Shown piece by piece: positions 1,762 through 4,443 of a stretch of DNA of 64,000 bases (the first letter of the stretch is position 1; each line of letters starts with the position of its first letter). The notes beneath the pieces were generated by a model. That model was given only the letters and a program-made list of their open reading frames with translations. It made no database searches and was not told the DNA's origin. The translations under genes and the position numbers were made by a program. This DNA comes from Escherichia coli (GTDB lineage: Bacteria; Pseudomonadota; Gammaproteobacteria; Enterobacterales; Enterobacteriaceae): assembly GCF_013122565.1 (NCBI RefSeq), contig NZ_CP053258.1; one strand, 5' to 3'.

Positions 1762-1784
1762 CCTACACCTGTAAGAAAATCCGC
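1762..1784 (+). promoter_or_regulatory. EvgA-box-like motif upstream of ydeP
   Basis: cctacacctgtaagaaaatccgc; near-identical to the motif upstream of safA. Confidence 0.6.
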
Positions 1785-2020
1785 GCACAATTGAAGCCAG
1801 AGTCTTATTTTTTATATTGAAAAACATGTTAATTTAAACACTATGAGAGATGATGCTTAATTTATCGTGTTTAATCTTTTGTTTAACGATAATAGATTAA
1901 AAATAGAAAGAGAGTAGTCCCCTACTCTTATATATCCATGTTGACGATAATCCCTTTGTATATACTGTGCATCATCGCTATTACAAATCCTAATAATTCA
2001 TTTCCACACAGGATAAGCAG

Positions 2021-4300
2021 ATGAAGAAAAAAATTGAATCCTACCAGGGAGCTGCCGGTGGTTGGGGTGCTGTTAAATCCGTAGCGAATGCAGTACGTAA
2101 GCAGATGGATATACGCCAGGATGTTATTGCCATGTTTGACATGAATAAGCCAGAGGGCTTTGACTGTCCGGGTTGTGCATGGCCAGATCCTAAGCACAGT
2201 GCGTCATTCGACATTTGTGAAAACGGCGCAAAAGCAATCGCCTGGGAAGTCACGGATAAGCAGGTAAACGCCTCTTTCTTTGCTGAGAATACGGTTCAAT
2301 CATTACTTACCTGGGGAGACCACGAGCTTGAGGCTGCGGGGCGACTCACTCAGCCTTTGAAATATGATGCCGTCAGCGACTGTTACAAGCCATTAAGCTG
2401 GCAACAAGCTTTCGATGAAATTGGCGCACGCCTTCAAAGCTATAGTGATCCCAATCAGGTTGAATTCTATACTTCGGGCCGCACTTCCAATGAAGCTGCC
2501 TTTCTTTATCAGCTTTTTGCCCGTGAATACGGGAGCAATAACTTTCCCGACTGCTCCAACATGTGCCATGAACCGACCAGTGTGGGTTTGGCAGCGAGTA
2601 TCGGTGTGGGTAAAGGGACCGTGTTGCTGGAAGACTTTGAGAAATGCGATTTAGTCATTTGCATTGGGCATAACCCTGGTACAAACCACCCTCGCATGTT
2701 GACTTCGTTGCGCGCTTTAGTGAAACGGGGAGCGAAAATGATCGCCATCAATCCTCTACAGGAACGTGGTCTGGAGCGATTTACCGCACCGCAAAACCCG
2801 TTTGAAATGCTGACGAACTCTGAGACTCAGTTGGCCAGTGCCTACTATAACGTGCGCATTGGTGGCGATATGGCGTTGCTCAAGGGGATGATGCGCCTGT
2901 TAATTGAGCGCGATGATGCTGCAAGCGCCGCAGGTCGGCCCTCATTGCTGGATGACGAATTTATTCAAACGCATACCGTCGGCTTTGACGAGCTACGCCG
3001 TGACGTTCTCAATTCCGAGTGGAAAGATATCGAACGTATTTCTGGACTAAGTCAGACTCAAATCGCCGAACTGGCTGATGCATATGCCGCTGCCGAACGC
3101 ACCATTATCTGTTACGGAATGGGGATCACTCAGCACGAACATGGTACCCAGAATGTACAGCAACTGGTCAATCTGCTGTTGATGAAAGGTAACATTGGCA
3201 AGCCTGGTGCGGGTATCTGCCCACTACGAGGTCACTCTAATGTACAGGGCGACCGAACCGTCGGTATCACCGAGAAACCGTCTGCAGAGTTTCTGGCTCG
3301 CCTGGGTGAGCGCTATGGTTTCACCCCACCTCATGCACCTGGACATGCTGCAATTGCCAGCATGCAAGCGATATGTACGGGGCAGGCTCGAGCATTGATC
3401 TGCATGGGGGGCAACTTTGCACTGGCAATGCCAGATCGGGAAGCGAGCGCTGTACCGTTAACGCAATTAGATTTGGCGGTACACGTAGCCACTAAGCTTA
3501 ACCGCTCTCATCTGCTGACCGCACAGCATAGCTATATTCTGCCGGTTCTTGGGCGTAGCGAGATTGACATGCAAAAAAGCGGTGCGCAGGCGGTAACCGT
3601 TGAGGATTCAATGTCGATGATTCATGCCTCGCGTGGCGTGTTAAAACCCGCCGGTGTAATGCTGAAATCAGAGTGTGCAGTGGTCGCGGGTATCGCGCAG
3701 GCGGCACTACCCCAGAGCGTGGTAGCCTGGGAGTATCTGGTGGAAGATTATGATCGCATTCGCAATGACATTGAAGCTGTGCTGCCAGAGTTCGCCGACT
3801 ATAACCAGCGCATCCGACATCCTGGAGGTTTTCACCTGATAAACGCAGCTGCTGAAAGGCGCTGGATGACGTCGTCAGGTAAGGCTAATTTCATTACCAG
3901 TAAAGGGCTGTTAGAAGATCCCTCTTCAGCGTTTAACAGTAAGCTAGTCATGGCGACAGTACGCAGTCACGATCAGTACAACACGACGATTTATGGTATG
4001 GATGATCGCTATCGAGGGGTATTCGGTCAACGAGATGTGGTCTTTATGAGTGCTAAACAAGCTAAAATTTGCCGTGTAAAAAACGGCGAAAGAGTTAATC
4101 TTATTGCGCTTACGCCAGACGGTAAGCGAAGCTCACGCCGCATGGATAGATTAAAAGTGGTCATTTACCCTATGGCTGACCGCTCACTGGTGACCTATTT
4201 TCCAGAATCGAATCACATGCTAACACTTGATAACCACGATCCATTAAGTGGCATTCCAGGCTATAAAAGTATTCCGGTTGAATTAGAACCATCAAATTAA
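2021..4300 (+). CDS. ydeP: Molybdopterin oxidoreductase, acid-resistance protein YdeP, 759 aa
   Basis: Full-length ORF; Cys motif CPGCAWPDP; formate-dehydrogenase-like molybdoenzyme family; EvgA-box-like motif upstream. Confidence 0.93.
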
Positions 4301-4313
4301 TGCCTCTTCTCAT

Positions 4314-4344
4314 TTCTTCTGCTGTCATCCGCACAGCAGAAGAA
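4314..4344 (+). terminator. 12-bp perfect-stem hairpin downstream of ydeP
   Basis: ttcttctgctgt / catccgc loop / acagcagaagaa; weak T tract after it. Confidence 0.5.
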
Positions 4345-4420
4345 TTCCTCATTGACTATTATCGCGCAATTTGCTCACATGGATTAAATTAAACCACATC
4401 CTATAAGATATAAACTTCTG

Positions 4421-4443
4421 CCTACAGCTGTAAGAAACTCCGC
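4421..4443 (+). promoter_or_regulatory. EvgA-box-like motif upstream of safA-ydeO
   Basis: cctacagctgtaagaaactccgc; 21 of 23 identical to the ydeP copy; inverted half-sites CCTACA / TGTAAG. Confidence 0.6.

Follow-up and report, generated by a model that had tools for sequence, protein, structure and literature searches.

In this study, we show that two near-identical 23-mers upstream of ydeP and of safA-ydeO, found in a stretch of Escherichia coli DNA of 64 kb (analysed whole and hereafter called the window), each contain the 18-bp inverted repeat that recurs at other promoters of the EvgA regulon. The best overall explanation, to which we give a probability of about 0.9, is that each motif holds one EvgA operator that activates the promoter downstream of it. 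Our own part in this is the sequences themselves, the occurrence of the same motif at other EvgA-bound promoters, its rarity, its conservation and its apparently fixed distance from a −10-like hexamer; that EvgA binds and activates the ydeP and safA promoters is taken from the literature, and published papers state that this binding is direct.

The 23-mer pair and the 18-bp EvgA box

The preliminary description of this DNA had drawn attention to a pair of near-identical 23-mers, and both are present where it placed them. They read cctacacctgtaagaaaatccgc (1762-1784, upstream of ydeP) and cctacagctgtaagaaactccgc (4421-4443, upstream of safA) and match at 21 of 23 positions, the mismatches falling at positions 7 (C/G) and 18 (A/C). 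When the pair was written as one degenerate 23-mer and up to three mismatches were tolerated, the two were the sole matches on both strands of the 64 kb, and 100 dinucleotide-preserving shuffles gave none. The K-12 copies of both are identical to those of the window. The inverted half-sites CCTACA and TGTAAG that had been read in them do form an inverted repeat, albeit an imperfect one in which 5 of the 6 positions are complementary.

Both 23-mers are intergenic. The first lies beyond the end of ydeQ (ORF on the + strand, ending at 1687) and upstream of ydeP, whose ATG (2021) is 243 bp away; the second lies upstream of safA, 111 bp from its ATG (4548). The genes behind the motifs are the ones originally named, since the open reading frames and the annotation of matching E. 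coli genomes agree. All are on the + strand: ydeP (2021-4300, 759 aa), the first regulated gene, encodes a putative oxidoreductase of acid resistance; safA (4548-4745, 65 aa) encodes the small membrane protein that connects EvgS/EvgA to PhoQ/PhoP; and ydeO (4819-5580, 253 aa), co-transcribed with safA, encodes an AraC-type activator of acid resistance.

The EvgA consensus of Masuda & Church 2003 is reportedly TTCYTACA-NN-TGTARGAA. The 18-bp inverted repeat is the EvgA box reportedly described for ydeP, b1500/safA, yegR, yfdX, yfdW/frc and emrK by Masuda & Church 2003 and by Itou et al. 2009. Upstream of ydeP it occupies 1760-1777 (+ strand) as ATCCTACAccTGTAAGAA, also written ATCCTACACCTGTAAGAA, with the halves ATCCTACA-CC-TGTAAGAA; upstream of safA-ydeO it occupies 4419-4436 (+ strand) as TGCCTACAgcTGTAAGAA, also written TGCCTACAGCTGTAAGAA, with the halves TGCCTACA-GC-TGTAAGAA. 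Each departs by a single mismatch from the consensus, TTCYTACANNTGTARGAA, and no shuffled sequence matched it at one mismatch or fewer. The limits drawn for the motif in the preliminary description thus held in part: the 23-mer does take in the box, but the box starts 2 bp further to the left and stops 7 bp before the 23-mer does.

With one mismatch each, and with the recovery of the same repeat from four other EvgA-bound K-12 regions (see below), the proposal that the motifs are EvgA operators is borne out. The assignment of 1760-1777 and 4419-4436 as putative EvgA operators is supported, the base-level agreement with published footprints being judged from the above consensus and from independent motif recovery. 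In sequence, inverted-repeat form, genes and regulator these boxes are the same as the published E. coli EvgA box, from which nothing essential differs; an EvgA regulatory element at ydeP and safA-ydeO is, in other words, already known.

Recurrence at other EvgA targets and specificity

The emrK/evgA, frc, yfdX and yegR operons are given as EvgA-bound in the literature (PMC8147483, PMC3720670, PMC8174306). A scan of such further targets, which had been proposed as a check, found matches in K-12 upstream of emrK/evgA, frc (a perfect one), yfdX (twice) and yegR. The repeat was also recovered de novo: these four K-12 upstream regions were searched exhaustively for the 18-mer that they best share, with no use of the consensus, and gave the same inverted repeat with a summed identity of 44, against at most 40 in shuffled sequences. 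A matrix built from the four K-12 sites then ranked the ydeP box first and the safA box second over both strands of the whole 64-kb window, at 15.6-17.2 bits, the next-best match in the window scoring 12.6 bits.

Specificity was assessed over 182 kb of E. coli DNA, made up of the window and three K-12 stretches. At one mismatch or fewer, the box was found at ydeP, safA, frc, yfdX and yegR; two mismatches additionally brought in emrK/evgA and one site within mdtE, and three a second yfdX site and one site within yehC. The two sites in coding sequence are thus the sole matches at up to three mismatches that do not lie upstream of EvgA-regulated operons. The one in mdtE has 2 mismatches and lies in the coding region at 24887-24904 of the K-12 stretch L012. 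In addition, no match to the box was found in about 466 kb surrounding the ydeP homologues of other genera. A wide occurrence at non-EvgA promoters, which the preliminary description had named as grounds for doubt, is therefore not what was seen, box-like matches being rare in the roughly 670 kb (0.67 Mb) scanned. This is in line with the report that all known direct targets have an EvgA site, which none of the other genes induced by constitutive EvgS has (Johnson et al., PMC4283999). The upstream region of gadE (22569-23366 of the K-12 stretch L012) has no match at up to three mismatches, and a review gives this region as EvgA-bound; therefore, the motif fails to cover every reported EvgA interaction.

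It is most improbable that the motif is instead the site of another regulator, namely PhoP, which represses safA, or YdeO acting in feedback, or H-NS. PhoP and YdeO are both reported to lower safA promoter activity and the region of the motif is AT-rich, as such a reading would have it. The PhoP box, however, is a direct repeat, and the motif is an inverted one. Moreover, the motif accompanies EvgA targets, among which ydeP and emrKY have no other regulator in common (EcoCyc, cited in PMC8174306).

Conservation of the box within and outside E. coli

The stretch of the window is matched in 5,389 of 5,426 complete E. coli genomes, with a best identity of 98.9% and 97.9% to K-12. The segment 42598-45096 breaks the collinearity with OW1E2, the closest complete genome: an intact open reading frame of 366 aa (42314-43414) and one of 421 aa (43578-44843) stand in the window where OW1E2 has a truncated yddL porin pseudogene. 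The one hit of an Rfam scan of the 64-kb window was an ordinary SECIS_3 element (84 bits, 40301-40359, − strand), which by collinearity with OW1E2 falls within fdnG, the gene of the selenocysteine-containing alpha subunit of formate dehydrogenase-N.

Among 10 diverse E. coli strains, the half-sites CCTACA and TGTAAGAA show no variation at either promoter. The safA box does not vary at all in these strains. That of ydeP differs between strains at position 2 and at the central NN alone, all of them degenerate positions; its positions 1-4 read ATCC in the window strain as opposed to AGCC in K-12. The E. coli-type loci L013, L014 and L051 have the box at the expected places. One of them, L014, comes from a divergent lineage (YdeP 95% identical) and is the sole other Escherichia species representative among the ydeP homologues returned; it retains the safA box as CGCCTACAGTTGTAAGAA. 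Upstream of each box the L014 sequence has diverged with indels, and conservation sets in at the box and reaches some 25 nt beyond the predicted start. The locus L013 (JARKOR010000108.1) was assigned to a 'Candidatus Nanosynbacter' MAG. Its YdeP is 100% identical to that of the window and both EvgA boxes are there; almost certainly, this is an E. coli contig that was mis-binned.

Outside E. coli, the nearest ydeP homologues are those of Edwardsiella (85% aa identity) and then Yersinia rohdei (67%) (L015-L020). The regions upstream of ydeP homologues in Edwardsiella, Yersinia, Raoultella and Tatumella contain neither the box nor its half-sites, nor any similarity to the E. coli promoters. These unrelated upstream regions hint that ydeP may have been acquired horizontally and then put under EvgA control.

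Core promoters, spacer and leader

In the same register past the two boxes (+ strand) lie the predicted extended −10 elements TGtTAATTT of ydeP (1827-1835) and TGtTATATT of safA-ydeO (4486-4494), which in L014 read TGcTAATTT and TGcTATATT, respectively. The safA element shows no variation in the 10 E. coli strains, and its hexamer, the best −10-like one of the region, starts 53 nt after the box. A −10-like hexamer lies 53-54 nt past the box at 5 of 6 EvgA promoters (safA, emrK, frc, yfdX and yegR), and at all 6 when the slightly weaker TAATTT of ydeP is counted (corrected P about 4e-4); at yegR an offset of 57 is equally usable. Transcription would accordingly be predicted to start near 1842 for ydeP and near 4501 for safA, with the centre of the box near −73. 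No recognisable −35 element was found at either predicted promoter, as expected of a promoter that depends on an activator. A consensus scan offers an alternative predicted ydeP promoter, TTGAAG-N16-TATATT (1791-1818), which would put the box near −57; L014 does not retain the −10 of this alternative (TATATT, 1813-1818), and nothing at safA corresponds to it.

Between the box and the −10 element, ten columns of the spacer are identical in at least 5 of the 6 promoters: C9, A10, A12, A13, G19, T26, C27, A30, T31 and T32 (1786-1809 and 4445-4468 in the window). When the register was scrambled, the mean was 1.7 columns and none of 2000 scrambles reached ten; once ydeP was left out as a paralogue of safA, the observed number was attained in 8 of 2000. 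At spacer positions 26-30 (about −39 to −35) there is a half-site-like TCYTA. Inspection by eye for a second full inverted repeat 20-22 bp past the box found none that is convincing.

Two hairpins were noted around ydeP. The first, AGAGTAG-tccc-CTACTCT (1911-1928), is in the predicted ydeP leader and is terminator-like on the − strand; in L014 it has a G-U pair and a shorter loop. The second, just past the ydeP stop (4314-4344, + strand), is TTCTTCTGCTGT-catccgc-ACAGCAGAAGAA, with a 12-bp stem and a predicted RNA fold of −17.6 kcal/mol (z −4.6). This hairpin lacks a clear U-tract, stands between ydeP and the promoter of safA and does not vary in 10 strains; L014 has the same stem with a different loop. 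It may act as a partial terminator or influence RNA stability. In published reports, ydeP-safA-ydeO is treated as one unit and safA-ydeO is also said to have its own promoter. A hairpin without a clear U-tract after ydeP agrees with both, that is, with the single unit and with a separate safA-ydeO promoter.

A probable promoter module shared by ydeP and safA

The last seven bases of the 23-mers, AATCCGC at ydeP (1778-1784, + strand) and ACTCCGC at safA (4437-4443, + strand), are outside the EvgA consensus. When it includes this right flank, the 23-mer pattern is absent from the K-12 evgA/emrK/frc/yfdX region, and the flank AAnTCCGC is common to the ydeP and safA promoters only, those of emrK, frc, yfdX and yegR being different. 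The likeness of the two promoters extends well past the flank. The ydeP block 1778-1865 (+ strand) takes in the spacer, the core promoter and the first part of the leader, and it can be aligned in register to the safA block 4437-4524 (+ strand) with no gap. Past the 23-mers, 47 of 80 positions are identical in the exact ungapped register (binomial P about 4e-9), and upstream of the box identity is at background. The similarity therefore covers about 100 bp (1760-1865 and 4419-4524), from the box downstream only and through the predicted extended −10, and the block is conserved in the divergent L014. When 42,251 intergenic register pairs were compared, the highest score fell to the one anchored on the 23-mers, with 55 of 80 positions identical (mean 21.9, sd 4.0). 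This similarity is flagged only by the register-constrained test; gapped local alignment with a harsh mismatch penalty did not flag it.

A chance resemblance of two AT-rich intergenic regions can be set aside as practically negligible: their AT-richness speaks for it and nothing else does, and it has to face the 100 shuffles without a match and an anchored register that outranks all other pairs. Instead, the alignment suggests that a single module of about 100 bp was copied to give both the ydeP and the safA promoter. Such a common origin would account for the identity beyond the box, including the right seven bases of the 23-mers.

It was also considered that the whole 23-mer, including AAnTCCGC, could be the functional operator, with the flank as an extra protein contact such as an adjacent second half-site. 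The flank is indeed (nearly) invariant in the 10 strains, and TAAGAAA with a second heptad after it bears a loose likeness to the primary site of the Bordetella regulator BvgA, TAAGAAATTTCCTA. We nevertheless regard this as unlikely, given that emrK, frc, yfdX and yegR do without the flank, that no more than about 3 of 7 positions agree with a BvgA-type heptad, and that L014 has AAATTCGC at ydeP. Moreover, the identity runs for some 80 bases beyond the flank, so that the flank is no distinct unit.

At the other extreme, the similarity might be a mere relic of a duplicated promoter segment whose common bases have no operator function. Duplication or gene conversion is indeed the best explanation of an ungapped similarity over about 100 bp. 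However, the 18-bp core is also present at four unrelated EvgA-bound promoters with otherwise dissimilar flanks, and the half-sites are the most invariant part of the sequence, variation within the box being at the degenerate positions. A relic without function is thus very improbable, and we retain the reading of the 18-bp box as an EvgA operator within a copied promoter module.

Shorter blocks are common to other pairs of EvgA promoters. Those of frc and yfdX share CTCTCTGATT, and those of ydeP (1828-1849) and yegR (about 23336-23357 of L011, − strand, positions derived from alignment offsets) have TTA(T)ATTTAAACACTA(T)GAGAG in common around the predicted −10 and start; the local-alignment score of the latter block was reached in 0 of 300 shuffles.

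Discussion

The closest characterised homologue of EvgA, and the nearest model for its mechanism, is BvgA, as studied at the Bordetella promoters Pfha and Pptx. The half-sites of the two regulators are alike (heptad TTTCCTA/TAAGAAA for BvgA, TTCYTA/TARGAA for EvgA), and in both systems the promoter has a poor −35 and the site lying farthest upstream is a high-affinity inverted repeat. The arrangement of the heptads stands in contrast: in the Pfha primary site they abut (TAAGAAA|TTTCCTA), whereas those of EvgA face the opposite way and are separated (TTCYTAC-N4-GTARGAA). Furthermore, arrays of 3-6 BvgA dimers at a 22-bp spacing, down to the poor −35, have been demonstrated experimentally, while in the EvgA promoters the conserved positions that separate the box from the −35 are few, with no sign of extra dimers.

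In geometry, the EvgA box resembles the sites of NarL, of the NarL/FixJ family. The NarL 7-2-7 site consists of two inverted heptads 2 bp apart that are bound by a LuxR-type helix-turn-helix dimer. The EvgA box can be written in the same manner (TCYTACA-NN-TGTARGA), although its heptad sequence differs. NarL sites also vary in number and position, whereas the EvgA box appears to keep a nearly fixed distance from the −10-like hexamer.

It is conceivable, though we hold it only tentatively and think it rather doubtful, that the EvgA regulon grew by the copying of a promoter cassette of about 85-100 bp, comprising the box, a 52-bp spacer, the extended −10 and the start region, with ydeP/safA as the clearest pair and the shorter in-register blocks of ydeP/yegR and frc/yfdX as further traces. 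As part of the same tentative proposal, the positions between the box and the −35 that are conserved across all six promoters (CA at +9/+10 after the box and TCYKATT at about −39 to −33) would be a second, undescribed contact of EvgA or of RNA polymerase, like the secondary BvgA sites. The likely module copies, the apparently fixed distance from box to hexamer and the conserved spacer positions may be of modest use, in that they provide testable predictions for start sites and secondary contacts.

The following course of events would fit these promoters. At mildly acidic pH, EvgA is phosphorylated by EvgS, and a dimer of EvgA~P, a response regulator of the NarL/FixJ type, would bind the 18-bp repeat. 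The bound EvgA~P would then activate a weak sigma-70 promoter downstream, one that lacks a −35 and has an extended −10 (TGnTAATTT at ydeP, TGnTATATT at safA) 53 nt past the box. It may do so by a class-I-like contact with RNA polymerase or through further EvgA dimers that spread toward the −35, as in BvgA. The output would be a ydeP transcript and, separately, a safA-ydeO transcript, the latter relaying the signal to GadE and to PhoQ/PhoP.

The operators can be read from the raw sequence, and in this respect nothing is added to published knowledge. Both evgAS and safA-ydeO are reported to be confined to E. coli and Shigella, and the box-less ydeP homologues outside E. coli fit the whole circuit as a lineage-specific addition. 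Within that circuit, the two boxes would be where the EvgS/EvgA acid-resistance cascade sets in, at ydeP through one and at safA-ydeO through the other.
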